From Planctomycetota bacterium (GTDB lineage: Bacteria; Planctomycetota; B15-G4; SIAN01), in assembly GCA_031409275.1 (NCBI GenBank), contig JANNXA010000033.1, positions 32,001 to 96,000 on the forward strand: DNA of 64,000 nucleotides. The letters are read 5' to 3'. Below the pieces are notes generated by a model, which was not told the DNA's origin, made no database searches, and saw only the letters and a program-made list of their open reading frames with translations. Position 1 is the first letter of the stretch. Each line of letters begins with the position of its first letter. The position numbers and the translations under genes were made by a program. This document shows, piece by piece, positions 6,048 through 24,649 of this stretch.

Positions 6048-6118
6048 CGGCGTTCCGTGCCGAGTTCCACGGCTCGATTCGAGATCGACATCAACCCACG
6101 GATTTCTTGGAGCTCTCC

Positions 6119-6601: not shown

Positions 6602-6608
6602 ACTCGCA

Positions 6609-9515: not shown

Positions 9516-9597
9516 GGCGACGGACAGTAGCGCGCGCGCCGCGGCTACAGTGCCCGCCTCGCAGCGGCCCGATCGCCGCGCGACAGGAGATCGATGG

Positions 9598-10446
9598 ATG
9601 ACGCCGCCGGCCGACAAGAGCGCACAGCAGCTCGCCAACAGCTTCGTCCTCGCCGAGCGTGACCTCGCCTTCCTGGCGCGTCCGGAGCTCCGGCCGATTC
9701 GCCTCCAGCTCGAGCTCCTGAAGCCTGACCTGATCATGCGCGAGCATGGCGTCGTCTCGACGGTGGTCGTCTTCGGCAGCGCGCGCGTGCCGGCGCCCGA
9801 AGATGTGACGACGCACGTCATGAAGGCGCAGGCCGCCGCGATCGAGCATCCCGACGACGTGGGTCGCCTGCGCCAGCTGCGCGCGGCGAAGTCGCTGGTG
9901 AAGTACGCCAAGTGGTACGCCGAGGCGCAGAAGCTCGGCGCGTTGATCTCTTCGTCATGCCAGGTCGGCCAGGAGTGCAAATACGTGATCATCACCGGCG
10001 GCGGGCCGGGGATCATGGAGGCGGCCAATCGCGGCGCGGCCGATGTCGACGCCAAGTCGATCGGCCTCAACATCGTGCTCCCCTTCGAACAGCGGCCGAA
10101 CCCCTACATCCATCCCGGTCTCTGCTTCAACTTCCACTACTTCGCGATGCGCAAGATGCACTTCTTGATGCGCGCGAAGGCGCTGGCCTTCTTCCCTGGC
10201 GGATTCGGGACGCTCGACGAGATGTTCGAGGCGCTCACGCTGATCCAGACCGGCAAGATCGCGCGCATGCCCTGCGTCCTTTTCGGCCGCGAGTTCTGGG
10301 ACAAGCTGATCGACTTCGAGTTCCTCGCCGATGAAGGGCTGATCTCGCCGGACGACCTCAACCTGATCGAGTTCGTCGAGACGGCGGAAGAGGGGTGGGA
10401 GCGGATCCAGGCGTTCTACGGCAATGGCAAGCAGGCGAAGCACTGA
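9598..10446 (+). CDS. LOG family protein (TIGR00730 Rossmann-fold nucleotide phosphoribohydrolase)
   Basis: VFGSAR, TGGGPGIMEAANRGA, FHYFAMRKMHF, PGGFGTLDE; AGGAG upstream. Confidence 0.92.
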   Translation: MTPPADKSAQQLANSFVLAERDLAFLARPELRPIRLQLELLKPDLIMREHGVVSTVVVFGSARVPAPEDVTTHVMKAQAAAIEHPDDVGRLRQLRAAKSLVKYAKWYAEAQKLGALISSSCQVGQECKYVIITGGGPGIMEAANRGAADVDAKSIGLNIVLPFEQRPNPYIHPGLCFNFHYFAMRKMHFLMRAKALAFFPGGFGTLDEMFEALTLIQTGKIARMPCVLFGREFWDKLIDFEFLADEGLISPDDLNLIEFVETAEEGWERIQAFYGNGKQAKH

Positions 10447-10456
10447 GGAGCATGGC

Positions 10457-11500
10457 GTGGCGACGACGAAGACGCTCGGCATCGGGATCATCGGCACCGG
10501 CTGGGTCGCTGGCGCGCACGTCGACCATTGGAAGAAGGTCGCGGGCTGCGAAGTCGTCGCGGTCTGTTCGCGCGAGGAGGAGACGGCGCGCCGCTTCATC
10601 GCCGAGAAGGCGCTGCCGCACGCGGCGGCCTATGCCGATCGCGCGCGCTTCCTGAAGCACAGCGGCCTCGACGTGGTGGTGCTGGCGACGCCGCACCCCA
10701 ACCACCCGGCCGAGACGATCGCCGCCGCGAAGGCGGGCAAGCACATCGTGATCGAGAAGCCGGCGGCGCTCGATGCCGCCAGCTTGAAGAAGATGGTGGC
10801 GGCGGTGAACGCGGCCGGAGTGAAGACGAGCGTCTGCTTCGAACTGCGCTGGATTGGCCTGTTCAAGAACATCAAGGCCTACCTGCAGCAGGGGCTGCTC
10901 GGCGATGTGTTCCACGGCGAGGTGGCCTACAACCACGGTTGCGGCCCCTGGTACAAGCAGTGGGCCTGGAACATCAAGAAGGAGATCAGCGTTTCTGCCG
11001 AGCTGACCGCCGGCTGCCACGCGATCGACGCGCTGGTCTGGTTCATGGGGCGACGCGTGACCGAAGTCGCGGCGATGAAGTGCTTCTCGCCGAAGAACCC
11101 GCTGCAGTACGAGTACGCCCCCAACTCGACGGCGCTGTTCCGCTTCGAGGATGGCGCGACCGGCTCGGTCCACACGTCGATCGAGTGCCGCAACCCCTAC
11201 CACTTCCCGATCGTGCTGCAAGGCGACCGCGGCACCATCAACTACGACAAGCTCTACACGCTCGAATGGCCCGGACAGTCGACTTGGGCCACGATCCCCG
11301 CCGACCTCCCCGACTCCGGCAAGGTCGAGCACCATCCCTACCAGGGCCAGTTCGACCACTTCGCCGACTGCATCCGTCGCGACGTGCGCCCCGACAACGA
11401 CCTGAACGCGTGCGCCCACGTGCATGAGATCTGCTTCGCCATCGAGGAAGCGGCGGCCAGTGGCAGGACCGTCAAAGTGAAGCGCACCGCGGGGACGTGA
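10457..11500 (+). CDS. Gfo/Idh/MocA family NAD(P)-dependent oxidoreductase
   Basis: GIIGTGWVA, ATPHPNH, GKHIVIEKP, GCHAID; GAGGAG before GTG 10457. Confidence 0.9.
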   Translation: MATTKTLGIGIIGTGWVAGAHVDHWKKVAGCEVVAVCSREEETARRFIAEKALPHAAAYADRARFLKHSGLDVVVLATPHPNHPAETIAAAKAGKHIVIEKPAALDAASLKKMVAAVNAAGVKTSVCFELRWIGLFKNIKAYLQQGLLGDVFHGEVAYNHGCGPWYKQWAWNIKKEISVSAELTAGCHAIDALVWFMGRRVTEVAAMKCFSPKNPLQYEYAPNSTALFRFEDGATGSVHTSIECRNPYHFPIVLQGDRGTINYDKLYTLEWPGQSTWATIPADLPDSGKVEHHPYQGQFDHFADCIRRDVRPDNDLNACAHVHEICFAIEEAAASGRTVKVKRTAGT

Positions 11501-11527
11501 GCGCGGCGGAGCGTCCCGTTGCGTCGC

Positions 11528-12895
11528 TCAGCGCGGCCCGCCCTCGGGGCAGCACCGCTCGAGCGCGCTCTCGCGCTGCATCTGCAGGTGGCGCAGGCGC
11601 TCGGCTGGCGAGGGCGGCGCGAAGGTGACCGGATGCGACAACGGTGGCGCCCGCTCGCGAAGCTCGCCGTAGATCGCGTCGAGCGCGGCCGCGTGGTCGG
11701 CGAAGGTGGGGGGCGGCGGCGGGCGCGCGGCGGCGAGCTGCGTTCGCAAGCGCGATTCGTCGAGGCAGCGGAGCAGGTCGCGCTCCAGCGCCGCGATGTC
11801 GCCGGCGCGATGGACGAGCGCACCGCCGCCGGCCCGCCGCGCCGGCGCACCGCTGTCGGAGAGCAGCGCCGGGATCCCGAGCTCGAAGCACTCATCGAGC
11901 ACGTAGCCGTGCGTCTCGAGGCAGGTCGAGGGGAAGACGCCGTAGTCGGGCGCGAGCGAGGCCAGCTGCGCGAAGATGAAGGGGCCGTGGAAGGAGATCG
12001 GTGCCGCGCCGGCCAGACCGCGCAACCGCGCTTCGAGCGCGTCGTCGGCGAACGCGCCCAGCAGGTGGAGCTCCGCGGCGACGCCCGGCCGCGCCGCGAG
12101 CGCGCGCGGGAACGCGGCGACCAGCTCGACGACTCCCTTGTGGGCTGCGAGGCGTCCCCAATAGGCGAAGCGGAGCGGGCGATCGAGCGCCGTCGTCGGC
12201 CGCCGCAAGCCATGCGGCGCATAGGGGAGCGGGAGCGCCGTGATCCGATCGCGCGGGAACGCGAGGCCCGCTGCGACCTGCTCGGCGACGAAGTCGGAAA
12301 TCGCCAGCACGGCGCCGGCGCGGTCGAGCTCGGCCAGGAACTGGCGACGATGGAGCTCGATGCCGATCGCGATCTCCTCCGGACGCTCATGGCCAAATCG
12401 GGGCACGCATGCGGCGCAGTTCTCCGTGGAGAGAGCGCGCGTGCACGGAGCGCCGTCGCGATCGACGCGGAAGCAGCGCGGGCACGAGGCGAGGAAGTCG
12501 TGCAGCGAGACGACGGTCGCGATGCCGCGTGCGGCGGCGCGCTCGACCAGGTCGGTCGTCAGGCGCATCCAGTGCTGCACGTGGACGACATCGGGTCGCT
12601 CGCGCTCGAGCAACTCGTCGAAGAGGCGGCCCGCTTCGGGATGCCAGAGCTTCGCGTGGTGGTCGAAGTAGAGGTCGTCGCGCACCAGACGGTGCACGCG
12701 CACGCCCTCGCGCTCCGCCGTCTCGAGGCGCGTCGTCGCGGCGCGCCGCCCGCTGCCGGCGAGGACCACCACGTCGTGGCCGCGCACGCGCTGCGCTGCG
12801 ACGAGAGCGCCGGCGTACGTCTCGACGCCGCCTGGCCCGTCGGGGGCGAAGGCGTTGACGCAGTGGAGGATCTTCAGCGCGGCGCTCGGTGCCAT
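11528..12895 (-). CDS. Glycosyltransferase family 4 (GT-B fold)
   Basis: GGVETY, PDVVHVQH, SLHDF, YWGRLAAHKG, PSTCLETHGYVLDE. Confidence 0.88.
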   Translation of the reverse strand: MAPSAALKILHCVNAFAPDGPGGVETYAGALVAAQRVRGHDVVVLAGSGRRAATTRLETAEREGVRVHRLVRDDLYFDHHAKLWHPEAGRLFDELLERERPDVVHVQHWMRLTTDLVERAAARGIATVVSLHDFLASCPRCFRVDRDGAPCTRALSTENCAACVPRFGHERPEEIAIGIELHRRQFLAELDRAGAVLAISDFVAEQVAAGLAFPRDRITALPLPYAPHGLRRPTTALDRPLRFAYWGRLAAHKGVVELVAAFPRALAARPGVAAELHLLGAFADDALEARLRGLAGAAPISFHGPFIFAQLASLAPDYGVFPSTCLETHGYVLDECFELGIPALLSDSGAPARRAGGGALVHRAGDIAALERDLLRCLDESRLRTQLAAARPPPPPTFADHAAALDAIYGELRERAPPLSHPVTFAPPSPAERLRHLQMQRESALERCCPEGGPR

Positions 12896-12943
12896 GCGCG
12901 CTAGATAGCGCCCCTCCGCCCCCCGCTACCATCCGCCACCACG

Positions 12944-14059
12944 ATGGGCATCCCGACCAAGGACTATGGTCGCCAGCATCGCGCGCTGTGGAGCGAGCTC
13001 GCGGGCGAGATCGAGCGCTGCCTCTTCGGCGACGATCCGGTCCTCGGCGCGGCGGTCGAGGCGTTCGAGCGGGAGCTCGCCGACTACCACGGCGTCGCTC
13101 ATGCCGTCGGAGTGAACTGCGGCACCGACGCGATCGTGATGGCGCTGCGCGGCCTCGGCGTCCGCGACGGCGACGAGGTCGTCACCAGCGCACACACCTT
13201 CAGCGGTGTCGTCAGCGCGATCGTCCAGGCGGGCGGCGTGCCGCGCCTCGTCGAGCCCGAGCGCGAGACCATGGTGGTCGCGCGCGAGGCGCTGCAGGCG
13301 GCCTGCACGCCGCGCACGCGCGCCCTGCTGCCGGTCCACCTCTATGGCCAGCCGATCGACCTGGTCGGGTTGCGCGACTGGTGCACGGCGCGGGGCCTCG
13401 TGCTGATCGAGGATTGCGCTCAGGCGCACGGCGCGCGGCGCCGCGGCCGCAGCCTCGGGTCGTTCGGCCACGCGGCGGCGACCAGCTTCCACCCGAGCAA
13501 GAACCTCGGCGCGTTCGGCGACGGCGGGGCGGTCCTGACCGATGACGCGAACCTCGCGGCCGCGTTGCGCATCCGGCGCCATCTCGGCAAGGCCGGCAAG
13601 TACGAGATGGTGGCGATCGGTCCGAACAGCAAGCTCGACACGTTGCAGGCAGTGCTGCTGCGGGTGAAGCTGCGCCATCTCGACGAATGGGTCGAGCGGC
13701 GCGCCGCGTTGGCCGAGCGCTACCGCCGCGGCCTCGAGGGCGTCGGCGACCTGGTGCTGCCGCTGCCCGTTCGCGAGGCGGGGGCGCGCCACGCGTGGCA
13801 CCTCTACGTGGTCCGCTCGGCGCGGCGCGACGCCCTGCGCGAGTTCCTCGCGGAGCGCGGCATCAAGACGGGCATGCACTATCCGATTGCGGCGCACGAG
13901 CAGCCGGCGCTGCGCGACCGCTGCCTCGGCGGCCCGTTCCCGCTGGCGGCGGAGCTTGCCCGCACGGTCGTCTCGTTGCCGCTTTCACAGGAGCTGACCG
14001 AGGCGGAGATCGACGTCGTGATCGACGCGACTCGGCGCTTCTTCGCGACGGCCCCATGA
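12944..14059 (+). CDS. DegT/DnrJ/EryC1/StrS PLP-dependent sugar/cyclitol aminotransferase
   Basis: NCGTDA, PVHLYGQ, IEDCAQAHGA, SFHPSKNLGAFGDGG (PLP lysine), WHLYVVR. Confidence 0.95.
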   Translation: MGIPTKDYGRQHRALWSELAGEIERCLFGDDPVLGAAVEAFERELADYHGVAHAVGVNCGTDAIVMALRGLGVRDGDEVVTSAHTFSGVVSAIVQAGGVPRLVEPERETMVVAREALQAACTPRTRALLPVHLYGQPIDLVGLRDWCTARGLVLIEDCAQAHGARRRGRSLGSFGHAAATSFHPSKNLGAFGDGGAVLTDDANLAAALRIRRHLGKAGKYEMVAIGPNSKLDTLQAVLLRVKLRHLDEWVERRAALAERYRRGLEGVGDLVLPLPVREAGARHAWHLYVVRSARRDALREFLAERGIKTGMHYPIAAHEQPALRDRCLGGPFPLAAELARTVVSLPLSQELTEAEIDVVIDATRRFFATAP

Positions 14060-15303
14060 GCGAGCGCGTCGTCTTCGTCGGCGGCGGCGTCTTCGCGGTG
14101 CGCTGGTTCGAGGCGCTCGCGGCCACGGCCGCTCCCGATGAGCTTGACCTGCGGTTGGTGGGACGCGACAAGTCGCGCCTCCATACGGTCGTCGCGCAGG
14201 CGCGCGCGCAGCTCGCGACGTCGCGGCCGAACTGGCGACTGGCGGCGGCGACCGATTTCGCAGCCGGCGTGCGTGGCGCGACGGTCGTCGTGCTGATGGC
14301 GCGGATCGGCGGACTCGAGGCGCGCGCCGCCGACGAAGCGCTCGCGCTGCGCCACGGGATGGCCGGCGACGAAGGGCTCGGAATCGGCGGGACCGCGAAC
14401 GGCTGGCGCACGTTGCCGGTCGTGCGCGCCTGGGCGGCGACGCTGCGGCGCGAGGCGCCCGACGCGTGGGTGGCCAACCTGATGGCGCCGCTCGGCATGA
14501 CGACGCGCGCGTTGCAGGAGGCGGGCGTCGCGGCGACCGGACTCTGCGAGCTGCCGCTGCTGACGCTGCAGGGTTGGCTCGCGAGCGTTCACGAGGAGCT
14601 CGGTGCAGCGCACGGCACCGACGACCTCGACTACGCCGGGCTCAACCATCTCGGCTTCTTCTGGCCGCGCAGCGAGCGCGGCGCCAAATGGCTCGCGGCG
14701 CTGGCGCGCGCCGGCGCCATCGACCCGCAGCTGCTCGCCACACTCGGCGGCGCACCGCTCCACTATTACGAGGCGCTGATCGAGCCGGCCGTCGGCGCGC
14801 GACGCGGCCGCTCGCGGCCGAACGGTCGCGCGCTCGCGTTGATTGAGCTGCGCGAGCGCGCGCTGGCGCGGATGCGCGCCGCACCGGGCGAGCCGGTGAC
14901 GGCGCTCGCCGAGCGGTCGACGCCATGGATCGATCGGCTGCTGGCTCCGACGGTCGCCGCGCTGCTCGCGGGTGAGCGGCTCGACGGCTTTTTCGACCTC
15001 CGCAACGGCGGCCTGCTGCCGAGCGTCTCCGCCGACGCGATCGTCGAGCTGCGGGCGACGCTCGATCGGGGCGGGGCGGCGGCCCGCGCGCCGCTCGCCA
15101 TGCCGGCGCCGATCGGCAAGTTCATCGCCGCCGCGGCAGAGTGGGAGGAGCGGAGCTATCGAGCTGCGCGGGATCGCGATCGAGCCGCGCTTCGCGAGGC
15201 GCTGCTCGCGTGGCCCGGTCCGTGGGAGCGGCGCCTCGGCGCACCGCTCGACGCGCTCGTCGACACCATCGCGACCGTCGAGCCGCCGGAGGACCCGAAG
15301 TGA
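14056..15303 (+). CDS. Divergent glycoside hydrolase family 4 (NAD+/metal-dependent) protein
   Basis: VFVGGG, RIGGLEARAADE, PDAWVAN, GLCELP, YAGLNHL; ATGA overlap with the aminotransferase. Confidence 0.8.
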   Translation: MSERVVFVGGGVFAVRWFEALAATAAPDELDLRLVGRDKSRLHTVVAQARAQLATSRPNWRLAAATDFAAGVRGATVVVLMARIGGLEARAADEALALRHGMAGDEGLGIGGTANGWRTLPVVRAWAATLRREAPDAWVANLMAPLGMTTRALQEAGVAATGLCELPLLTLQGWLASVHEELGAAHGTDDLDYAGLNHLGFFWPRSERGAKWLAALARAGAIDPQLLATLGGAPLHYYEALIEPAVGARRGRSRPNGRALALIELRERALARMRAAPGEPVTALAERSTPWIDRLLAPTVAALLAGERLDGFFDLRNGGLLPSVSADAIVELRATLDRGGAAARAPLAMPAPIGKFIAAAAEWEERSYRAARDRDRAALREALLAWPGPWERRLGAPLDALVDTIATVEPPEDPK

Positions 15304-16262
15304 AACTGGGAGTTTGCGCACAGGCGCTACCGCGCACCTCGCTGGTCGCGGCGCTCGACGCGGCGCGCGACCTCGGGTTCGAGGCGATCGAGCTGCCGGT
15401 CGACGCCGCGAGCCCCTGGATCGACCTCGATGCCGCGCTGGCCGGCGGATGGCGGGTGATCGCCGCGGCGCTGCGTGAGCGAGGGCTCTCGCTGAGCGCG
15501 CTCTCGAACCATCAGGAGGGGCAGCTGCTGCTCGGGCCGCACGGCGAGGAGACGGCGGCGATCCATCGCGGCACTCCCGACGAGCAGGTCGCCTACGCGC
15601 TCCATCGTCTCCGCCAGACCGCCGAGCTGGCGCGCCGGCTCGAGGTCGACGTCGTCTGCGGCTTCACCGGCTGCTCGAACTGGACGCGCTTCTTTCCGTG
15701 GCCGCTGCGCGACGGCTGGGAGCAGATGGAGGCGCCGTTCCGCGAGCGGATGCGGCCGCTGCTCGACGACTTCGAGCGCCTCGGCGTCCGCTTCGCCCAC
15801 GAGTGCCACCCGCTGCAGTTCGCCTACAACACCGAGACGGCGGCGCGCGCGGTCGAGCTGCTCGACGGCCACCCAGCGTTCTGCTTCAACCTCGATCCCG
15901 CCAATCTGCTCCTGGTCGGGGTCGATCCAGTCCTGTTCGCGGTGGAGCACGGCGCGCGCGTCGTCCACGTGCACGGCAAGGACGGCGAGCTGGTCGCCCA
16001 TCACGCCGCGCGCTCCGGCCTGCTGGCGCACGGTCCCTGGCATCGATCGGGACGCGGCTTCCGCTTCCGCGTGCCGGGTTGGGGCGACGTGCCTTGGAGG
16101 CGCCTGATCAGCGAGCTGCAGCTCGCTGGCTTCCACGGCGTCATCGCGGTGGAGCACGAGGATCCGACCATGTCGGAACGAGAGGGGCTGCTGCAGGCGA
16201 TTCGCTTCCTGCAGCCGCTGCTGTTGCGTGATCCGCCGCCGGGGGAGCGCCGCTGGTGGTGA
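15300..16262 (+). CDS. Sugar phosphate isomerase/epimerase (xylose-isomerase-like TIM barrel)
   Basis: FAHECHP, FNLDPANL, HVHGKD, RVPGWGDVPW, AVEHED; GTGA overlap. Confidence 0.9.
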   Translation: MKLGVCAQALPRTSLVAALDAARDLGFEAIELPVDAASPWIDLDAALAGGWRVIAAALRERGLSLSALSNHQEGQLLLGPHGEETAAIHRGTPDEQVAYALHRLRQTAELARRLEVDVVCGFTGCSNWTRFFPWPLRDGWEQMEAPFRERMRPLLDDFERLGVRFAHECHPLQFAYNTETAARAVELLDGHPAFCFNLDPANLLLVGVDPVLFAVEHGARVVHVHGKDGELVAHHAARSGLLAHGPWHRSGRGFRFRVPGWGDVPWRRLISELQLAGFHGVIAVEHEDPTMSEREGLLQAIRFLQPLLLRDPPPGERRWW

Positions 16263-18166
16263 GCGACTCGTCCTCGGGCCGGAAGCCGCCGCGCGACGAG
16301 TTGCGCGACCAACCGAGCGACGAACCGCTCGATGTGGTGGCGCGCCTCGCCGACCACCAGCAGAACCTGTGGCCCGCGCCGCCGACACCGTCGCGGGTCG
16401 CTTTGCTGGCGTTGCCCTTGCCGCGAATCGTCGACGCACTGCTTGGCGCGGAGCGGGACACGGCGCGCTCCAACTGGCTCGCCGATCGCGCCGCGGAACT
16501 CGGAGGCGGCGACGGCCCGCTGCCGATCGTCGATCTTGGTGGTGAGTTCGCGCGGCTCGGCACGGCGAGCGCGACGTGTTCCCGGTTCGACGCGCGCCTT
16601 GACGCGCTCGGCGCGAGCGGCGTTCGTCGACTGATCGTGGTCGGCGGGCAGGAGAACCGTGGCTTCGCGCGAGCCGTCGCGGCGCGCTGGTCGGGCGAGC
16701 TGCAGCCGCTGCAGTGGCCGCTCGATGCTTGGCTGGCGAACGTGCCGGCGCTGCGCGACGACGAGCGGCCGCCGCCGGACGGTCGGCAGGCCGTACGCGC
16801 ATCCGATCCGGCTCGCCGTCTCGGTCCGTGGTGGGGTTTTGTGCCACCGCGCGCGCTTCTCGGGACGCGCGAAGGCGCGGAGCTGCGTGCCGCATGGCAG
16901 GCCTACTGGTGCGCGCGCGGCCGGCCCGACGCGGTGCGCTGCGCCGTCCTCGGGCTCGACTCCGACCTCGAGGCCGCGCTGCAAGTCGCGTCGTGCTCCT
17001 CCGATTCGCCGCCGCCGTCCGACCGTGCGGGCGCGCTCGCGCGCCACGTCGCCATCACCGGCCTCGACGGCGCCGGCAAGTCGACCCACGCCGCTCGCCT
17101 CGCCGCCGCGCAGGCGGCGCGCGGACGGCAGGTTGCCGTGGTGAAGATCTATCGGCAGGGCGCGTTCCTCGAGCTCGCCGGCGAGCTCGGCGCGCGAACG
17201 CGCCGCGGGGCTCCGCTCGCCGCCTTCCGCGTCTCCCGGCTCGTCAAGCTGATCGACAGCGCGCGCGTGCTCCGCGATCGCCTCGCGCCGATCGCCGGCA
17301 GCTGCGACCTGCTGCTGCTCGATCGCTGGCTCGAGACGCATGTCGCCGCGGCACGCAGCCAGCTCGGCTGGGATCTCTCCGGCCATCCGCTGCTCGCCGC
17401 GTTCCCGCACGTCGATCGGCGCTACTGGCTCGAGCTCGATCCCGCGCAGGCGATCGCGCGGCTCGATGCGCGGCCGGAACGTCGGAGTGCCGACGAGCAC
17501 GCGACTGGCTTGCGCGGCTACGCCCGCGAATTCAACCGCCTCGCCGTGGGGACGGGCGAGCGGCGCCTCGCCGCCAGCGCGCCGATCGAGGAGAACGCGG
17601 CGCGGCTCCTCGCCGAGGTCGACACGCTGCTCGGTCCGCCGCGCGCCGGCGGAGCCGTCGTGGCGATCGAGAATGCGGCGCCGCCGCGACTGCCTTTCGA
17701 TCCCGCGCGCGAGCGCTGCGCGGTCCACCTCGGCGCGGCGACCGACGGGAGCGAGCTCGGTCGCGACCTCTTCGCGCTGCGCGCCGATCTGCGTCAGCGG
17801 TCAGGCGCGGTGCTCGACGGGCTGCCGGAGGCGACATGGATCGAGGCGTATGCGGCGGAGCTGCTGTTGGCGCTCGCGACGACGCGGCCGCGCCGCGCCG
17901 CCGTCGCGCTGTGGCCCGCGGCGTTGGCGCTGATGGAGGAGCTCGGCGACCTGCCGATGCTCGACGAGCTCGCGCGGATGGTCGAGGCCGAGACGATCGT
18001 CGGGTCGTGGGGCGATCGCGTTGAGGTCGAGCGTGCCGCGGCGGAGGCGTTCCGCGCGTTTGGCTTCGCGCCGCGTGGCGCCGAACGGTTCGCCGCGAGC
18101 TACGGCGACTCGTTGCGCGCGCTGTCGCGAGCGTGGAGTGCCGCGCCGATCGCGCCCGCCTCGTAG
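16259..18166 (+). CDS. Multidomain protein with central thymidylate-kinase-like P-loop domain
   Basis: ITGLDGAGKST P-loop and LLLDRW; GTG 16259 overlaps the upstream stop; flanking domains unassigned. Confidence 0.7.
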   Translation: MSDSSSGRKPPRDELRDQPSDEPLDVVARLADHQQNLWPAPPTPSRVALLALPLPRIVDALLGAERDTARSNWLADRAAELGGGDGPLPIVDLGGEFARLGTASATCSRFDARLDALGASGVRRLIVVGGQENRGFARAVAARWSGELQPLQWPLDAWLANVPALRDDERPPPDGRQAVRASDPARRLGPWWGFVPPRALLGTREGAELRAAWQAYWCARGRPDAVRCAVLGLDSDLEAALQVASCSSDSPPPSDRAGALARHVAITGLDGAGKSTHAARLAAAQAARGRQVAVVKIYRQGAFLELAGELGARTRRGAPLAAFRVSRLVKLIDSARVLRDRLAPIAGSCDLLLLDRWLETHVAAARSQLGWDLSGHPLLAAFPHVDRRYWLELDPAQAIARLDARPERRSADEHATGLRGYAREFNRLAVGTGERRLAASAPIEENAARLLAEVDTLLGPPRAGGAVVAIENAAPPRLPFDPARERCAVHLGAATDGSELGRDLFALRADLRQRSGAVLDGLPEATWIEAYAAELLLALATTRPRRAAVALWPAALALMEELGDLPMLDELARMVEAETIVGSWGDRVEVERAAAEAFRAFGFAPRGAERFAASYGDSLRALSRAWSAAPIAPAS

Positions 18167-19026
18167 CCGCTGCGCGCCCGCTCCACGCGCGTCGCCGTGC
18201 CGATCTCCGCCATCGCGTCGCGTTGCATCGCCGCTTCCACGGCGGAAACGAAGCCGGAGTCGAGCTCGACGACGCCGCCGCCGAGCACCAGGAGCGGCAG
18301 CGCCAGCAGGTTGGTCGCGCTCGCCAGCGCGCCGCCGAGCGCAGCCGCCGCCGTCGCGAGGGCCGCGGCGACGCGCGGGGCGTCCGCTACGGCGGCGTCC
18401 GCGAGTCCGCCCTTCGCCAGTCCGAGCTGGCGCTCGATCGCGCCACCCGACGCGATGGCGCCGATGCAGCCGCGCCGTCCGCACGCGCACTCGGGGCCGT
18501 TGCGATCGACGGAGAGGTGGCCGATTTCGCCGGCGAGACCGCCCTGCCCCGGCCAGAGTTCGCCGCGCAACACCAGGGCGCCGCCGATGCCCGTGCCGAC
18601 CGCGAGGAAGAGGAAGTCGCGATCGGCGCCCTCGCGGACGGCGAGCTCGGCGCGCGCCGCTTGATGGACGTCGTTGTCGAGGCAGACCGGCAGCGCGAGC
18701 CGCTCGGCCAGCTGCGCCGCAAGCGGCACCTCGCGCCACTCGCGCAGGATCACCGAGCTGCGCGCGACGCCGCGCGCCGAATCGACAAGGCCGGGGAATC
18801 CGATGCCCGCTGCGCGCGCCCGGTGAGTGGGCGCCAGCGCCGCGAGCTGCTCCGCCAGCGCCGCCATCGCCTCGACCACGCGAGCCGGCGAGCCGGCGGG
18901 GGTCGCGACGCGCTGCTGGGCGACGATGCGGCCGGCCGCGTCGACCAGCGCGGCGAGGAGCTTCGTCCCGCCGAGGTCGAATCCGAAGGTCGCGAGCCCG
19001 CCGCCGTGCTCAGCCGGCATGCGCAA
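18100..19026 (-). CDS. ROK family sugar/cyclitol kinase
   Basis: GFDLGGTK, GIGFPG, LDNDV, VGTGIGG, AGEIGH, CACGRRGC; no N-terminal HTH. Confidence 0.92.
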   Translation of the reverse strand: MRMPAEHGGGLATFGFDLGGTKLLAALVDAAGRIVAQQRVATPAGSPARVVEAMAALAEQLAALAPTHRARAAGIGFPGLVDSARGVARSSVILREWREVPLAAQLAERLALPVCLDNDVHQAARAELAVREGADRDFLFLAVGTGIGGALVLRGELWPGQGGLAGEIGHLSVDRNGPECACGRRGCIGAIASGGAIERQLGLAKGGLADAAVADAPRVAAALATAAAALGGALASATNLLALPLLVLGGGVVELDSGFVSAVEAAMQRDAMAEIGTATRVERARSGYEAGAIGAALHARDSARNESP

Positions 19027-20146
19027 CCCGAGCGCGGGGGCGAGGCTCCGTCCGCGCCATCGCGGCCGAGACGGCAGCGGCGAGCTCCGCGCCGTCCACT
19101 TCGTCGATCGTCACCGACGTGGCGGAGGTCGGCAGGACGTAGTGGAGCCGGTTGCCGCGCACCAGGCGGATCGCCGCAAGCCGGTCGAGCGCTGCGCACA
19201 GCCGCTCCGGCGCGACGGGCGGCGGAAGCTCGAAGCGGGCGAGCAGTGCGACGATGCGGTCGCGGTCGATTTCCGTGCAAAGGCCGCGGGCGCGGGCGAG
19301 CTCGAGGGCGACGATCAGCCCCCACGCGACCGCTTCGCCGTGCAGGATCCCCTCGTAGCCGAGCTCGGTCTCGAGCGCGTGGCCGAAGGTGTGGCCGAGG
19401 TTCAGCGGGCGGCGCAGGTCGCGCTCGTACGGGTCGCCGGCCAGCAGCTCGATCTTCTTCGCCGCCGAGCGGGCGACGACTTTCGTCAGCGCCGCGGGGT
19501 CGCCCGCGAGCAGGCGACGCGCGTCGCTCTCGAGCGTCTCGAGGAGGGGCAGGTCGCCGATCATCGCGACCTTCACCGACTCGGCGAGACCGGCGGCGAG
19601 CTGACGTCGATCGAGCGTGTGCAGCGTCTCCGGGTCGATCCAGACGTGCTGCGGATGGTGGAACGCTCCGAGGAAGTTCTTCGCCCACGGCGCGTTGACG
19701 GCGACCTTTCCGCCGATGGAGGCGTCGTGCTGCGCGAGCAGCGTGGTCGGCACGTTGGCGTACGCGATGCCGCGCATGTAGGTCGCGGCGACCATGCCGC
19801 CGAGGTCGCAGACGACGCCGCCGCCGACGTTGACGATCACGCCGCGCCGATCGAGGCCGGCGGCTTGCAACTCGCCGACGAGCCGCTGCCACTGCTCGAC
19901 GCTCTTCGACGCCTCGCCCGCCGGCACGACGTGGAGCGTGGCGATCCGCCCGTTCGCATGCAGGGCGGAGCGAAGCGGTTGCGCGTAGAGCGGCGCGACG
20001 CCGTCGTCGCTCAGCAGCGCGAGGCGAGCGCCCGGGAAGCGCTCGTCCAGCAGCGCCGGCAGCTCGCCGAGAAGGCCGCGCCGGATCTCGACCGTGTAGC
20101 GACGGTGGGCATCGGCCGATACCTCGAGCTTGGAACGCGGCTCCAT
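19010..20146 (-). CDS. 3-dehydroquinate synthase-family sugar-phosphate cyclase
   Basis: GEASK, GGGVVCD, YMRGI, PTTLLAQHDASIGGK, KNFLGAF, AESVK, LNLGHTFGHALE, HGEAV. Confidence 0.9.
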   Translation of the reverse strand: MEPRSKLEVSADAHRRYTVEIRRGLLGELPALLDERFPGARLALLSDDGVAPLYAQPLRSALHANGRIATLHVVPAGEASKSVEQWQRLVGELQAAGLDRRGVIVNVGGGVVCDLGGMVAATYMRGIAYANVPTTLLAQHDASIGGKVAVNAPWAKNFLGAFHHPQHVWIDPETLHTLDRRQLAAGLAESVKVAMIGDLPLLETLESDARRLLAGDPAALTKVVARSAAKKIELLAGDPYERDLRRPLNLGHTFGHALETELGYEGILHGEAVAWGLIVALELARARGLCTEIDRDRIVALLARFELPPPVAPERLCAALDRLAAIRLVRGNRLHYVLPTSATSVTIDEVDGAELAAAVSAAMARTEPRPRARVAHAG

Positions 20147-20150
20147 CGGC

Positions 20151-21146
20151 TCAGCCTCCATCGGCGACGGCGGCATAGTCGCAGCCGCGGCAGAGGAACC
20201 CGGCCTCGAACTCCTGGCGCAGGTGGCGCGCGCGGATCGCCCGGTAGCGATCGCCGCTCCAGACGTCGGCGATGCCGATCCCGGCCGCGGGATCGATGCG
20301 GCCGACCACCGCGGCGCGATTCCAGTCCACGTTGCAGAGCACGCAGGTTCCATCCCAGAGGACGTAGAGCTTGACGAAGGGACGCTGGCAAAGCGGCGGC
20401 GCCTTGGCGGTGGGCGCGACGGCGCTGCTGGCGAGCCCGGGATCGACGCCCGCGACGGTGCGCTCATTCGAGAAAGCCTTGAGCAGCACGTGGTCGCGGT
20501 ATAGCGGATCGGCCGAGGGGAGTGTCGCGGCGAGCTCGGGCAGGTCGCCCATGACGACCTTGAGGCGCATCGCGCCGAGGCGACCGTTGGGCGCGCGGCC
20601 GAACAGCTCGCGCAACCGGCGGTCGACGGCGGAGAACGAGAGCCCCTCCATCACCTCCTCGTAGCGCGTCGCTTCGAAGCCGTGCACGCTGACGCAAAGC
20701 TCGTCGAGCCCCGCCGCCGCGAGCCGCTCGGCCAGGTCGAGGCGCAGCAGCGCTCCGTTGCTGAACAGGTTGAGCGTCGTGCCGGGAAGCGCGCGCCGCG
20801 CCGCGGCGATCCACTCGACCATGCGCGAGTCGAGCAACGGCTCGTTCATCAGGAACAGCGAGAGGCGCTCGACCGGATGGAGCGTCAACTCGGCGAGGAG
20901 CGCGTCGTAGAGCGCGCGGCTCATCTCGCCGTGCTCGAAGCCGGGGGCGCGCGTGACGAGTGGGTGGGGACACATGCGGCAGGCGGCGTTGCAGCGAGTG
21001 GTGGTCTGCAGCTGCACCTTGAGTGGGAACGGCGGCAGGAGGGCGGCGATGTCCGCCTCCGTCGCGCCGCCGGTGCGGAACGCGGTGGCGGTGCGCAGTA
21101 GCGCGCTCTCGCGTTCGCTGATCGTCGCTCGATCGAAGGGCCGCAT
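20151..21146 (-). CDS. Radical SAM protein with C-terminal twitch/SPASM-type domain
   Basis: CNAACRMC; NEPLLD; C-terminal CQRPF..DGTCVLC..CRGC. Start could extend to 21227. Confidence 0.9.
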   Translation of the reverse strand: MRPFDRATISERESALLRTATAFRTGGATEADIAALLPPFPLKVQLQTTTRCNAACRMCPHPLVTRAPGFEHGEMSRALYDALLAELTLHPVERLSLFLMNEPLLDSRMVEWIAAARRALPGTTLNLFSNGALLRLDLAERLAAAGLDELCVSVHGFEATRYEEVMEGLSFSAVDRRLRELFGRAPNGRLGAMRLKVVMGDLPELAATLPSADPLYRDHVLLKAFSNERTVAGVDPGLASSAVAPTAKAPPLCQRPFVKLYVLWDGTCVLCNVDWNRAAVVGRIDPAAGIGIADVWSGDRYRAIRARHLRQEFEAGFLCRGCDYAAVADGG

Positions 21147-21223
21147 CCGGTTCCTCGCGGGGCGGGTGCCACGAGGCGCGCCCGACGGCCCATCGATAGC
21201 ACGGAAACGCACGGGCGCGCCCA

Positions 21224-22399
21224 TCATCCGGGTCGTGACGCGGATGGGCGCGCCCCGTTCGTGGCGCGACCGCGCGTCGCCGCCTGCTCGAGCGCGAGGC
21301 TGCGGACGACGACTCCGTTCAACGGCTCGAGGCAGGCGATCGCATCGCGCCCGACCCAGCGGAAGTTCGACAGATCGGCGCGCAGCCGCGTCGGGTCGAC
21401 GTCGAGCGCGAAGACGTGGTGGCGAACGATGCGCCGCCGGGCAACGTCGACGTCGTCGAAGTTCCCGATCGCGATGGGCGCCGCATCGGCGAGGCCGAGC
21501 TCCTCGTCGAGCTCGCGCGCCATCGCGGCGGTCGGGGTCTCGCCGGGCTCGAGCTTGCCGCCCGGCGTGTCCCAGAGCCCCGGATGGCTTGCGGCATCAG
21601 CCGTGCGTTGCTCCAGCAGGAGCGCGTCGCCGTGGCGCAGCAGCGCGCCGCAGACCGTCAGCGCCGGCGCGTCGGTGAGGCGTTCGAAGGCGTCGACGTG
21701 GCGGGCGAGCAGCGCCTCGGCGCGCTCGAGGTCGCGCGCGTCGTTCACGTCGATCCAGGGCGCGGCGTGCAGGTGGGCGTGGATCCGCTCGCCGCGCGCG
21801 CGCAGCGCCTCGAAGAGCGCGGGGAGCGGGCAGGGGCGATCGCGTGGGATCGCGGCCAGAGCCAGAGGGCCGAGCACCGAGAGGGCGCTGCAGATCAGGG
21901 CGTCGTGCGTCGGTTTCTCGCGGTAACCGGTGACGTCGTCGCCGTCGATCTCCAGCACGCCCCACGGGATCGTGAACGGCTCGCGATGGACGGCGAGGGT
22001 CAATGCGGCGCCCGAGTCGGAGTGTTCGCGGAGCAGCGCTGCGAGATCGACGGCGGTGAGGTTGTCGGCGTTGACCACCAGCAACGCCTCGGCTCGGCCG
22101 GCCCACTCCGCCGCGGCCCCGATCGTGCCGCTCGGCGTCATCTCGACCTGCACCTCGAGCGCAGCGCCGAGCGCCTCGGCGAGCGGCCGCACGCGCTGCT
22201 CGACGAAGGCGCGCAGCTCCGGGCGCGCGGCCGGAACGACGACGGCGAGGTCGCGCAGCCCGGCGCGCAGCAGCGCCAGCACGTTCCGCTCCAGCAGCGG
22301 GACCCCGCGCACGGCGACCAGTGGCTTGATCGTCGCCGCGCCGCTCTCGCGCATGCGGCTGCCCATCCCGCCCGCCTGCACCAGCGCGACCGTCCTCAT
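21224..22399 (-). CDS. Sugar-phosphate nucleotidyltransferase fused to a NUDIX hydrolase
   Basis: QAGGMGSRM..KPL, VVNADNL, YREKP, WIDV, then intact Nudix box GGKLEPGETPTAAMARELDEELGL. Confidence 0.9.
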   Translation of the reverse strand: MRTVALVQAGGMGSRMRESGAATIKPLVAVRGVPLLERNVLALLRAGLRDLAVVVPAARPELRAFVEQRVRPLAEALGAALEVQVEMTPSGTIGAAAEWAGRAEALLVVNADNLTAVDLAALLREHSDSGAALTLAVHREPFTIPWGVLEIDGDDVTGYREKPTHDALICSALSVLGPLALAAIPRDRPCPLPALFEALRARGERIHAHLHAAPWIDVNDARDLERAEALLARHVDAFERLTDAPALTVCGALLRHGDALLLEQRTADAASHPGLWDTPGGKLEPGETPTAAMARELDEELGLADAAPIAIGNFDDVDVARRRIVRHHVFALDVDPTRLRADLSNFRWVGRDAIACLEPLNGVVVRSLALEQAATRGRATNGARPSASRPG

Positions 22400-22764
22400 C
22401 GCGGGAGCGTCGCCTCGAAGACGAAGAGGCGCAGCGGGTCGGCGCCGTCGTTGACCAATCCGTGCGTGCCACCCGGTCGATTGCGGATGAGGTCGCCGGC
22501 GACGACGCGGAAGCTCTCCCCGTCGCGCTCCATGCGGCCGCTGCCGGACAGCACCAGATAGAACTCCTCCTCGTCGTCGGCGTGCTGGTGGCGGCCGATC
22601 GAGGCCCCGGGCGGCAACTCGGCGAGGTCGATGAAGTTCAGTGCGCCGGAGAGCTGCTGCCGCTCGGCGACGCGGCAGAAGGCGATCGTGCCGTCGCCGT
22701 GATGCGCCTGGACGCGTTCGAGTGGGAGCTTCCCGAGGTTGCAGCGATCGAACGGGCGACGCAT
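22396..22764 (-). CDS. Cupin domain protein
   Basis: LPPGASIGRHQHADDEEEFYLVLSGSG and GGTHGLVN; overlaps the next gene's start. Confidence 0.9.
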   Translation of the reverse strand: MRRPFDRCNLGKLPLERVQAHHGDGTIAFCRVAERQQLSGALNFIDLAELPPGASIGRHQHADDEEEFYLVLSGSGRMERDGESFRVVAGDLIRNRPGGTHGLVNDGADPLRLFVFEATLPR

Positions 22765-23062
22765 GGGCAGCGCTCCGCGCGTGGCCTGTCGTGCGGGTCG
22801 ACGCGGATCCTACATGCGATCCACTCCTTCCCTTCCGTCTCGCATGGCGCAACCCAGACTTACATCCGCGATGTCTGCCCGACCGCGCGCACCGTCGACG
22901 AATGCGCGCACGGCGGCGCGGCTCACGCCCTGGCGCGCCCCTCTCGCTCGGGCCGTTCTTCCGCCCGTGTAACGCCTCCGCCCGGAACCGGGTGTTACGG
23001 GCGGTGCCGCAGCGGCGGCGCTCGCGATGCGCTTCTCTTCTTCCGGCAACCGGAGCGACCCG

Positions 23063-24625
23063 ATGCACGCCACCCATTCGATCCCCGCCACGAGGAAGCT
23101 CGCGATCGCGGCGTACGCGGTCGGGATCCTTGGCCTTTCGAGCCGCTCCGCCGCTGGCCAAGCGACCGAGCAGCAGTCGATCGCACCCGCGATCGCCAGC
23201 TGGTCGCAGTACTTCGGCAAGGCACTGGCGGTGAGCAACGACTACCTGGTCGTCGGCGCGCCGCTGCGCGCATCGCCGATCCCGTTCGTCGTCCCCGGCG
23301 GCGCCGACGTCTTGCGCCGCGATCCGGTCACCGGCCTCTGGCACGCGGAGGCGAGCCTGTCCGGCAGCACTGCGGGCAACGGCGCGGCGTTCGGCGCGGC
23401 CGTCGCGGTCGATGGCGACGTCGTCGTGGTCGGCGCGACCGGCCAGGCGTCGTCGACGGCCGCTCGTGCCGGTGTCGTCTACGTGTTTCGCCGCGACGCG
23501 GCCACCGGATCGTGGATCGAGGAGCAGGAACTCGAGGGGAGTGCGTCGGGCCTGGACGGCCTGTTCGGCGCGTCGGTGGCCATCGACGGCGACGTGATCG
23601 TCGTCGGGATGCCTGGCTATGCGAGCAGCACCGGCGCGGCCTTCGTGTTCCGTTATCAGCCGGCGTCGAGCGTGTGGGTCGAGGAGGCCTTGCTGCTCGA
23701 TCCCAACGGTTTCGCCGGTGATCGAGCCGGCCTGGATGTTGCGATCGATGGCTCGACGATCGCCGTCGGTTCGCCGATGCAGGGCACGCTGCCTTACCCG
23801 ACGGGAACGGTCGGCGTCTGGACCGCCAGCGGAACGAGCTGGACGCAGGCGCAGGAGCTGACGCCGAGCAGCGCGACCACGACACCGCTGCGGCTCGGCA
23901 CGTCGCTGGAGCTGCGCGGCAATCAGCTGCTCGTCGGCGCGCCGGGCGAGTCGAACGCCACGACGCAGTACATCGGCGCCGCCTACCTCTTCGAGCGCGA
24001 CGGCTCGACGTTCAGCCAGACCGCGCACTTCGAGCCACCGGCGACGTACTACAACCTCAACTTTGGCCTTGATGTCGCCGTGAATGGCAACACGGTCGTG
24101 ATCGGCCAGCCGATCGACTGGGTGAATCCGGCGATCTCCGGCTCGGCGTGGGTCTTCCGCCGTCGAACCGCCAGCAAGCCGTGGGTCGCGGATCAGATGC
24201 TGATCCACGCCGGCGGCGGCCCCGACGACCAGTTGGGTGCCACGGTCGCGATGAGCGATCACCACATCGTGCTCGGCGCGCGCTACTCGAACAAGTACGG
24301 CCAGGACGAGGGCCTCGTCGCGAGCTACGACAAGGAGGAACTCTCGCTGTCGATCTCGCCGCGCTACCCGGCGCCGGACGCGACGATCGACCTCGAGGCG
24401 CACCGCGGGAATCCGGGCGAACTGATCCTGATCGCCGTCGAAGAGATCAGCGGCGCGCAGCTCTTCATTCCGCTGCTCACCGACGTCTTCCAGGCGAACT
24501 ACGCCTACGCGGTGCAGGACAGCGCGCCCAACCCGGCGCTCGGCCTCTCCGTCGGCGTGCGCGCCTACAAGCTCAGCGCGACCGGCAAGCTGGTGGCGTC
24601 GAGCCTCGAGTACGTCGATCTGTGA
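23063..24625 (+). CDS. Secreted FG-GAP repeat beta-propeller protein with ~95-aa C-terminal domain
   Basis: Signal-like N-terminus; about seven FG..VA.DG..VVGA repeats with GAAYLF/GVVYVF strands. Confidence 0.88.
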   Translation: MHATHSIPATRKLAIAAYAVGILGLSSRSAAGQATEQQSIAPAIASWSQYFGKALAVSNDYLVVGAPLRASPIPFVVPGGADVLRRDPVTGLWHAEASLSGSTAGNGAAFGAAVAVDGDVVVVGATGQASSTAARAGVVYVFRRDAATGSWIEEQELEGSASGLDGLFGASVAIDGDVIVVGMPGYASSTGAAFVFRYQPASSVWVEEALLLDPNGFAGDRAGLDVAIDGSTIAVGSPMQGTLPYPTGTVGVWTASGTSWTQAQELTPSSATTTPLRLGTSLELRGNQLLVGAPGESNATTQYIGAAYLFERDGSTFSQTAHFEPPATYYNLNFGLDVAVNGNTVVIGQPIDWVNPAISGSAWVFRRRTASKPWVADQMLIHAGGGPDDQLGATVAMSDHHIVLGARYSNKYGQDEGLVASYDKEELSLSISPRYPAPDATIDLEAHRGNPGELILIAVEEISGAQLFIPLLTDVFQANYAYAVQDSAPNPALGLSVGVRAYKLSATGKLVASSLEYVDL

Positions 24626-24649
24626 GCGGTCGCGGGAGCGGTCGCTCGC

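Follow-up and report, generated by a model that had tools for sequence, protein, structure and literature searches.

A conserved Planctomycetota gene block centered on a predicted 2-epi-valiolone synthase

The window analyzed here, 64,000 nucleotides of a Planctomycetota bacterium genome, carries a ten-gene block centered on a cyclase that is likely a 2-epi-valiolone synthase (EVS). We give about an even chance to the reading in which this block makes a nucleotide-activated, aminated C7 carbasugar and a GT4 glycosyltransferase attaches it to a glycoconjugate, with a glycan of the cell surface as the likeliest acceptor. The dedicated cyclitol-type cluster proposed in a preliminary description was recovered as a conserved block distinct from the housekeeping aroB. 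We infer all of the pathway chemistry.

Organization and conservation of the gene block

The strands and families previously assigned to eleven genes agreed with their Pfam profile matches (Table 1), and all eleven reading frames are intact. The thymidylate kinase (TMK) match lies below the Pfam cut-off in the window copy (E 5.5e-5) and above it in three relatives. The two converging operons are as tightly packed as described, since neighboring genes abut or overlap within each operon. The TMK fusion and the ROK gene share 67 bases at their 3' ends. Start codons are conserved at about 20146 (cyclase), 21146 (radical SAM) and 19020 (ROK), and a rough Nei-Gojobori comparison with a genome of the same genus (G004) gave dN/dS values of 0.12 to 0.46 across all 11 genes. 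The GC content of the cluster (73.7%) is higher than that of all 485 genome windows of 11 kb.

Table 1. Features of the gene block and its borders, in window positions
Feature	Position	Strand	Profile or remark
Gfo/Idh/MocA oxidoreductase	10457..11500	+	PF01408; neighbor, judged non-member
GT4-A glycosyltransferase, Cys-rich subfamily	11528..12895	-	PF13439; divergent from DegT
DegT-family PLP aminotransferase, C3-type	12944..14059	+	PF01041, E 2e-97
GH4 NAD+/Mn2+ enzyme, 6-phospho-beta-glucosidase type	14056..15303	+	PF02056+PF11975
TIM-barrel (AP_endonuc_2) enzyme, predicted (de)hydratase or epimerase	15300..16262	+	PF01261
Three-domain protein with central TMK fold, predicted second kinase	16256..18166	+	
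ROK-family kinase, predicted cyclitol 7-kinase	18100..19020	-	PF00480, E 1e-54
EVS-type sugar-phosphate cyclase, 378 aa	19010..20146	-	PF01761/PF24621
Radical SAM, twitch-type auxiliary cluster, BtrN-like	20151..21146	-	PF04055+PF13186
Nucleotidyltransferase-NUDIX fusion	21224..22399	-	PF00483+PF00293
Cupin, metal-binding HxH..E..H, predicted isomerase or epimerase	22396..22764	-	PF07883
GT4-B relic (cluster's conserved glycosyltransferase)	about 22801..22920	+	Start codon lost, most of gene deleted

The Gfo/Idh/MocA gene, formerly left as a possible member, was excluded: it is absent from the fetched flanks of six of the seven other full clusters, and in G004 it lies 5.6 kb from the cluster. 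Neither an exporter or other transporter nor a regulator occurs within the operons; as had been stated, no resistance gene is evident within the operons either. The cluster also contains no HAD phosphatase in the role of AcbJ (for the 7-phosphate) and no recognizable C1 reductase.

A check for conserved synteny found the genes recurring together as a block in scattered Planctomycetota genomes. The cupin, ROK, DegT, GH4, radical SAM, TIM-barrel, TMK-fold kinase and NUDIX components and an adjacent GT4 are kept in all eight fully read clusters, and the nucleotidyltransferase in seven. The latter is absent from the cluster of G416 (90% complete, 2 contigs) and was not found genome-wide there with the G073 ortholog as query; thus, NDP activation may be dispensable, or the G416 cluster may be decaying. 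Of the 42 genomes of the order, 7 encode an EVS-type cyclase; the TIM-barrel ortholog is present in six of these 7 and in none of the other 35, and in a sample of 401 genomes of the phylum, strong TMK-fusion and strong EVS matches fall in the same six genomes. Homologues of the block's enzymes also carry the labels Kofleriaceae, Myxococcales, Polyangiales and Polarisedimenticolia. The distribution is patchy and apparently mobile. A CDP-alcohol phosphatidyltransferase gene lies between the EVS gene and its GT4 in G009.

The cyclase and its partner enzymes

No other shikimate genes are nearby, as had been noted: aroC and an aroA-aroK fusion are located on contig C12. The search for a separate housekeeping aroB, suggested earlier as a check, found a second DHQS at C51:38422-39561, which keeps the DKK motif and groups apart from the cluster cyclase in a quick tree. 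Because of this second, housekeeping gene, the possibility that the cluster cyclase is the sole aroB is refuted. A housekeeping tmk is found on contig C16, separate from the TMK-fold protein of the cluster.

Motifs and tree position make the cyclase a likely EVS, by predicted activity. Its alignment places K231, D238-P239-Y240-E241, R246, N249, H252 and H256 in the pattern K..DP[YF]E..RR.LN.GH..GH, and the segment DP[YF]E..RR.LN.GH is as in the EVS proteins Amir_2000 (Actinosynnema mirum) and Staur_3140 (Stigmatella aurantiaca). At the C-terminus, R..R (R327 and R330) replaces the DKK of DHQS, likewise in both of these assayed EVS; the reference motifs of Amir_2000, Staur_3140, ValA, BtrC and RifG come from supplement file 1 of PMC4426668. 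R330 is invariant across 46 aligned homologues, and 111 of the 120 listed homologues have the EVS-type Arg, while eight have DKK and one is truncated. In a quick version of the tree, which holds no assayed EVS, the cyclase falls in a 23-row EVS-side clade (SH-aLRT 95) with a protein of Solirubrobacter soli, a species whose protein is labelled EVS in the same supplement file (PMC4426668).

The earlier assignments to the AcbC/ValA and BtrC (DOIS) types did not hold. The ValA motifs EELQPNLWE, LVDFGHSFSP and KHRDG are absent, and the EEVS structure 4p53 ranks 14 of 16 PDB matches; FEYGH and DNKRG of BtrC are also absent, and the BtrC-type structure 2d2x is the last of the 16. Since the cyclase carries EVS motifs and lacks those of EEVS or DOIS, the predicted ring is likely C7, from sedoheptulose 7-phosphate, the substrate from which EVS forms its C7 ring (PMC12904256), and not the C6 ring of 2-deoxystreptamine. 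Three other identities were rejected: housekeeping AroB, given the missing DKK and the DKK-bearing DHQS on C51; aminoDHQ synthase, as RifG keeps DKK; and EboD of the ebo cluster, as Nostoc EboD-type sequences with LDFGHWAAH differ and no UbiA gene lies in the cluster. The cluster contains none of the AHBA partners (type II dehydratase, DAHP synthase, phosphatase), and the genome, which is 93% complete, has no match to a type II dehydroquinase (RifJ role, PF01220).

The partner enzymes retain their catalytic motifs. The window ROK has DND, GTGIG and Cys, and in P0063 a ROK is fused to an EVS; the cupin directly follows EVS in the single-operon layout. The radical SAM protein is BtrN-like, as proposed, BtrN being its closest solved relative (best PDB match, E 9e-12 and 3e-12); its CxxxCxxC and four-Cys twitch domain align with the cysteines of BtrN, including the auxiliary ones, at low identity, and it is a predicted dehydrogenase. 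A DegT aminotransferase is present with its PLP Asp and Lys motifs, but the likeness to BtrR was not sustained: the PDB ranking is led by 2oga, 7b0d, QdtB and WbpE, the closest matches being C3 NDP-sugar aminotransferases (the DesV-type transaminase 2oga, QdtB, WbpE), and no chain named BtrR is among the 33 listed. GH4 retains GLCE, NH and Tyr, and 6-phospho-beta-glucosidases are the best PDB matches of its G011 ortholog. The TIM barrel matches 2zds and the 2-hydroxy-3-keto-glucal hydratase 8ro4 (E 3e-22). GDP-sugar pyrophosphorylases (GDP-mannose and heptose guanylyltransferase-type enzymes) are the best PDB matches of the nucleotidyltransferase (G073 ortholog), and the NUDIX fusion has 234 homologues at E<=1e-30. 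The TMK fusion (636 aa; predicted structure AF2 pLDDT 91.5, pTM 0.90) has a central TMK fold, an N-domain with no clear match in searches and a C-terminal domain that several relatives encode as a gene of its own; one of its 61 homologues is fused to GH4. For four cluster enzymes, the nearest proteins of solved structure work at C3 or via 3-keto intermediates, GH4 enzymes and BtrN among them.

Proposed pathway and destination of the product

As a strong expectation from its family, EVS would cyclize sedoheptulose 7-phosphate to 2-epi-valiolone, and ROK would, fairly probably, phosphorylate C7 as AcbM/ValC do. With moderate confidence, the TIM barrel, cupin and GH4 would carry out epimerization, (de)hydration and redox steps on the 7-phosphate, which would mimic a hexose 6-phosphate. 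The TMK-fold protein might then add a second phosphate at C1 in the role of AcbU, on weak to moderate grounds. Moderate confidence also applies to the formation of an NDP-carbasugar, likely GDP, by the nucleotidyltransferase, and to the oxidation of a ring hydroxyl, likely at C3, by the BtrN-like enzyme before amination by the C3-type DegT. Finally, and again on weak to moderate grounds, GT4 could transfer the unit, and NUDIX could clear surplus or wrong NDP product.

A surface destination, raised in the preliminary description, is plausible and rests on GT4 subfamily membership. GT4-A belongs to the same Cys-rich subfamily as the GT4s that fill a Wzt-bearing glycan locus on contig C49, and this subfamily has matches in 33 of the 42 order genomes. 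GT4s of one subfamily adjoin all eight full clusters, four of them forming a clade (SH-aLRT 98). In one metagenome cluster (L146), a GT4 and two NDP-sugar epimerases precede the cluster genes, and 5 of the 120 listed EVS homologues are fusions with an SDR of the NDP-sugar epimerase type.

Several observations count against the favored reading as a whole. The conserved GT4-B is only a relic here, just beyond the cluster end given earlier, matching residues 1-27 and 142-154 of the intact G004 GT4-B, with ACG in place of the ATG start; it is spanned by single contigs of two runs, possibly the source samples, and the rest of the genome yielded no ortholog. The intact GT4-A is adjacent to the cluster only here and in G004 (83%). 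G416 has no nucleotidyltransferase, L145 has no GT4 beside DegT, and the HAD phosphatase and C1 reductase are missing. The cluster lies inside the Wzt locus in no genome examined, and the flanks examined contain no flippase, Wzm/Wzt, polymerase or ligase genes. Lastly, the sole EVS organism with a reported product, A. mirum, makes the small molecule validoxylamine A (PMC12904256), presumably through EVS.

It is possible, though we consider it rather unlikely, that the same EVS pathway ends in a small aminocyclitol or pseudo-oligosaccharide, diffusible or kept in the cytosol and similar to validoxylamine, kirkamide or streptol glucoside, which would inhibit glycosidases or act as a signal; GT4 or GH4 would then join two small units. 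Validoxylamine A is made by a different route in A. mirum, the organism that Amir_2000 comes from (PMC12904256), ROK, nucleotidyltransferase and GT-like enzymes serve the synthesis of small molecules in known C7 clusters (PMC9200736), and the patchy distribution, high GC content and G416 gap also fit. However, the operons contain neither an exporter nor a regulator nor any evident resistance gene, the GT4s fall in the same subfamily as those of the lineage's glycan locus, and AcbS and AcbI resemble glycogen synthases (PMC9200736), unlike these GT4s. A role of the activated carbasugar as the head group of a lipid, be it a glycolipid, a phospholipid or a hopanoid side chain, appears improbable. 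A membrane lipid needs no transporter, GT4 enzymes can act on lipids, and G009 has its phosphatidyltransferase, but this gene accompanies only one of eight clusters and no lipid-modifying gene is conserved. We regard it as very improbable that GH4, the hydratase, ROK and Gfo form a module for breaking down aminocyclitols or 3-keto glycosides to which a cyclase was joined by chance: the closest relatives of GH4 and the TIM barrel are degradative, but there is no importer, Gfo is unlinked, and cyclase, nucleotidyltransferase and GT4 co-travel with GH4, the hydratase-like TIM barrel and ROK. Least credible are readings of the cyclase as another DHQS, as an aminoDHQ synthase of the AHBA/RifG route (which likewise employs ROK, DegT and Gfo) or as a DOI synthase for 2-deoxystreptamine: the 297.8 bits on TIGR01357 aroB (cut-off 305), the retained DHQS K/E/R/N/H residues and the BtrN-like partner are set against the missing DKK and BtrC motifs, the separate aroB and the undetected dehydroquinase.

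Relation to known systems and significance

The acarbose/validamycin logic invoked earlier fits in its combination of ROK kinase, nucleotidyltransferase and glycosyltransferase: the acb and val/vld pathways share with the block a cyclase, a ROK 7-kinase, a second kinase, a nucleotidyltransferase and GT-like transfer (PMC9200736). In contrast, EVS replaces EEVS here, an AcbJ-type HAD phosphatase and AcbL/AcbN are lacking, the nucleotidyltransferase is of the GDP-mannose/heptose type instead of glucose-1-phosphate adenylyltransferase-like, and the TMK-fold kinase, GH4, radical SAM, cupin and C3-type DegT are additional. The butirosin 2-deoxystreptamine/neosamine pathway (BtrC, BtrR, BtrN) resembles the block in the BtrN-like radical SAM with auxiliary cysteines and in having a DegT, whereas the cyclase here lacks BtrC motifs, DegT ranks with C3 NDP-sugar aminotransferases, and kinases and NDP activation are present. 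The kirkamide K-cluster and streptol S-cluster of Burkholderia leaf symbionts have the same cyclase, ROK and aminotransferase core but use EEVS and a HAD hydrolase, where the block has EVS and no HAD (bioRxiv 10.1101/2022.09.27.509721). The actinobacterial-type EVS loci examined have other partners (a class III aminotransferase, SDR and Gfo in L147; GT2 and DegT in L148). The K-cluster presumably also has a GH4 and a cupin.

EVS end products were called uncharacterised in a 2016 paper (PMC5133447), EEVS was called the only enzyme known for C7N aminocyclitols in a 2022 preprint (bioRxiv 10.1101/2022.09.27.509721), and validoxylamine A appears as an A. mirum product in a review of 2026 (PMC12904256). 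No pathway matching the present enzyme set was found in print, and the cluster, with chemistry that we infer throughout, would extend C7-cyclitol pathways as another variant. Among the sugar-phosphate cyclases, the EVS branch is the one understood least, and EVS clusters are annotated as aroB. The compact, conserved and fully listed enzyme set makes the question of the EVS product testable by an in vitro cascade. As candidate new chemistry, the block offers a GH4 that would work in biosynthesis, a BtrN-like enzyme that would act on a C7 ring, and a TMK-fold kinase carrying unassigned domains. More tentatively, and less likely than not, the block may be a mobile cassette that installs a glycosidase-resistant 3-amino C7 carbasugar in a surface glycan by means of a radical SAM dehydrogenase, a biosynthetic GH4 and a TMK-fold cyclitol kinase with two new domains; if true, this would give an EVS pathway a defined role in the envelope for the first time. 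If the product is a small molecule, it would offer a new glycosidase-inhibitor scaffold from uncultured bacteria, and if it is a carbasugar in a surface glycan, it would bear on the evasion of phages and predators.

The locus and its cyclase

The eleven genes named in the preliminary description were all confirmed by Pfam, and its two operons are tightly packed and convergent as claimed, with 3' ends that overlap by 67 bases. Reading frames are open in all eleven, with dN/dS values of 0.12-0.46 against the same-genus genome G004. In run X1 one contig of 15.8 kb carries the locus and in run X2 three contigs share it; both may be source samples, and all four runs are freshwater sediment metagenomes from one study. 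The proposal had been open to the cyclase being the only aroB of the genome. However, the source genome (G000; 5.59 Mb, 93% complete), in which the window covers C33:32001-96000, holds a second 3-dehydroquinate synthase (DHQS) on contig C51, which is 41.7% identical to the cluster cyclase and keeps the C-terminal DKK motif, and carries aroC and an aroA-aroK fusion on C12 and a housekeeping tmk on C16. Since a separate DHQS and tmk exist, the cluster cyclase and kinase represent extra copies.

The cluster cyclase scores slightly below the aroB cut-off, and its top PDB matches are DHQS; 2-epi-valiolone synthases (EVS) are expected to resemble DHQS, according to a figure legend in PMC5133447. In comparison with supplement file 1 of PMC4426668, its motifs agree with those of the assayed EVS Amir_2000 and Staur_3140 and are unlike those of the ValA, BtrC, RifG, DDGS and EboD types. 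The cyclase has 569 homologues at E<=1e-60; among the 120 of them listed, the EVS-type Arg replaces DKK in 111, DKK is present in eight and one protein is truncated. Furthermore, a quick tree of 40 rows, none an assayed EVS, placed the cluster cyclases and actinobacterial EVS-type proteins together (SH-aLRT 95), apart from the DKK proteins, including the C51 aroB. Taken alone, an EVS-type C7-cyclitol core is very probable. Some proteins fuse EVS with an NDP-sugar SDR or ROK, or GH4 with a protein of thymidylate-kinase (TMK) fold (P0011, P0012, P0013, P0017, P0023, P0063 and P0167).

Occurrence, layouts and probable transfer

Seven of the order's 42 genomes, representing all five families, scored ~500-536 bits with the EVS profile, and the next tier stayed at <=373; related genomes among them cannot be counted as independent, yet the carriers are scattered. 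An ortholog of the TIM barrel was present in six of the seven carriers and in none of the 35 other genomes; the exception, G007, is 70% complete and its EVS contig is only 3.9 kb. Across a phylum sample of 401 genomes, six exceeded 500 with the EVS profile, and the same six matched the profile of the three-domain TMK fusion at E<=1e-40; G313 matched the latter at E 8e-24. As candidate carriers, G157 (400 bits) and G014 (372 bits) were ruled out since both retain DKK and fall among DHQS in the tree, and G017 and G020 were left out of the count by score alone. The aroB of G014 is a possible intermediate form; G017 and G020 score alike.

The cyclase scan of the genome collection (13/64 parts) listed 80 matches, mostly acidobacterial loci with 36-46% identity; among these 80, a DegT match was found in five and other cluster genes in none. 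In the metagenome scan (5/64 parts), 8 of the 80 loci listed were EVS-type; the TMK-fusion profile, run against viral sequences, had seven weak matches, all confined to the TMK domain. Plasmids yielded 63 records; most of these are aroB, and one EVS-like type belongs to a different cluster from Streptomyces. Homologues of the TMK fusion number 61; those with names come from Kofleriaceae, Myxococcales and Planctomycetes, and one of the 61 is fused to GH4. The nucleotidyltransferase-NUDIX query finds 234. Eight of the 59 other TMK-fusion entries have a longest contig of exactly the length given for one of the 120 listed cyclases, which is indirect evidence for linkage.

Had these genes never co-occurred elsewhere, the proposal would have lost its basis; full clusters were found in seven other genomes (eight were read: G000, G004, G009, G011, G018, G025, G073 and G416). 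In layout A a single operon holds, in this order, EVS, cupin, nucleotidyltransferase, ROK, DegT, GH4, radical SAM, TIM, X, TMK-fold, Y and NUDIX; it is carried by G011, G018, G025 and G073, by G416 without the nucleotidyltransferase and by G009 with the second half inverted. In G009 (locus L115), the extracted DegT and GH4 frames seem to lose register in the 3' half of each gene, perhaps owing to frameshifts. Layout B is convergent, with nucleotidyltransferase-NUDIX and kinase-Y fusions, and is found in the window, in G004 and in the metagenome loci L143 and L145. Cluster flanks vary between genomes. The window cyclase groups with L143 and L145, not with layout-A Planctomycetota, in the quick tree, and the GC content of the cluster (73.7%) exceeds that of every one of 485 genome windows of 11 kb. 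Consequently, horizontal transfer of the cluster is likely.

Neighboring glycosyltransferases

The Gfo/Idh/MocA gene, previously a flank of uncertain membership, should be left out, as it follows a LOG-family gene and is unlinked in the other clusters read. A Cys-rich GT4 adjoins all eight full clusters. The GT4s of G004 (GT4-B), G018, G073 and G416 form one clade (SH-aLRT 98), that of G011 takes no firm place in the GT4 tree, and that of G009 has an ortholog (57%) among the GT4s at C49 in the source genome. The window copy of GT4-B survives only as a relic that has an altered start codon and has lost most of its length to deletion; GT4-A remains and is common only to G000 and G004. The subfamily matches 33 of the 42 order genomes, and paired GT4 matches in many of them suggest that a C49-type glycan locus is conserved in the order.

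Positions of features in the window and in extracted loci
Sequence	Position	Strand	Feature
Window	6044-10446		Upstream of cluster: 185-aa protein without Pfam match, APP1-type phosphatidate phosphatase domain protein, weak ArgJ-like gene, LOG-family gene
Window	11528..12895	-	GT4-A
Window	12896-12943		Very short spacer of divergent pair (48 bases)
Window	16256..18166	+	TMK fusion (636 aa)
Window	22765-22800		Very short spacer of divergent pair (36 bases), nearly identical in G004
Window	~22801-22920		GT4-B relic
Window	22801-25396		Apparent reciprocal losses against L108
L108 (G004)	12001-14795		Counterpart; keeps GT4-B, aligns only from window 23933 on
Window	23027-24625		FG-GAP gene, whole in G000
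L109 (G004)	8195-13752		Unknown protein, PMT_2 membrane glycosyltransferase and GDSL hydrolase between GT4-A and Gfo; two of the three found on C12 in G000
L002 (G000:C49)	94000-113999		C49 locus: four Cys-rich GT4, Wzt ATPase, several GT2, YfhO-like gene
L117 (G011)	3368-3925		Second, similar NUDIX gene flanking cluster
L113 (G025)	15482-16315		Second, similar NUDIX gene flanking cluster
L228 (G014)	9715-10770		aroB with EVS-like DPFE segment yet DKK kept
L139 (Streptomyces plasmid NZ_CP109456.1)	8643-19623		EVS-like cyclase with condensation and adenylation domains, NDP-sugar synthase, thiamine enzyme, BadF-type kinase, inositol monophosphatase, NUDIX
L147	9947-15991		Actinobacterial-type EVS gene with class III aminotransferase, SDR, Gfo
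L148	1-4038		Actinobacterial-type EVS gene with GT2 and DegT

Enzyme set and possible product

The PDB ranking of DegT is led by 2oga (DesV), 7b0d, QdtB and WbpE, all C3 aminotransferases. BtrN is the best PDB match for two orthologs of the radical SAM protein. The GH4 belongs to the 6-phospho-beta-glucosidase type and retains its metal and base residues, and the TIM barrel matches 2zds and 2-hydroxy-3-keto-glucal hydratase, whose DPSH motif is DxxN in all ten cluster copies. These four enzymes converge on 3-keto chemistry, which suggests that oxidation and amination would take place at C3. The nucleotidyltransferase resembles GDP-mannose and heptose guanylyltransferase enzymes. The TMK fusion has a confident predicted model with a central TMK fold and an N-domain of small alpha/beta fold without clear structural match, and X belongs to a family of 92 representatives without consistent Pfam match. 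A degenerate B12-binding domain in X or in this N-domain was unsupported, with Pfam, PDB profile and Atlas blank; the best VIA match reached Z 7.4 over 107 residues (rmsd 3.4), and hhalign of X against the TMK-fusion N-terminus gave a probability of only 27%.

In the acarbose pathway, as set out in PMC9200736, the ROK kinase phosphorylates C7 and AcbU C1, AcbJ cleaves off the 7-phosphate, AcbR forms GDP-valienol and AcbS then transfers it. We infer the same backbone here, in which 2-epi-valiolone would pass through a C7 kinase, a C1 kinase (the TMK-fold protein, putatively in the AcbU role), NDP activation and transfer. No phosphatase or clear C1 reductase was found among the cluster genes, which counts against this reading.

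The destination of the product is its weakest step. An envelope glycan is favored by the GT4 family and the absence of an exporter, and we give it about an even chance. Against this reading, the G416 cluster has no nucleotidyltransferase, GT4-B was lost in the source genome itself and, in the genomes examined, no cluster was found inside a Wzt locus. The main rival, a small-molecule product, has a precedent in A. mirum, where a variant route leads to validoxylamine A (PMC12904256); we consider it rather unlikely. Whichever the destination, neither this gene set nor any EVS cluster from Planctomycetota turned up in the literature searched, whose coverage was partial. With an enzyme set that we did not find in print, the cluster is real, conserved, EVS-type and probably mobile.
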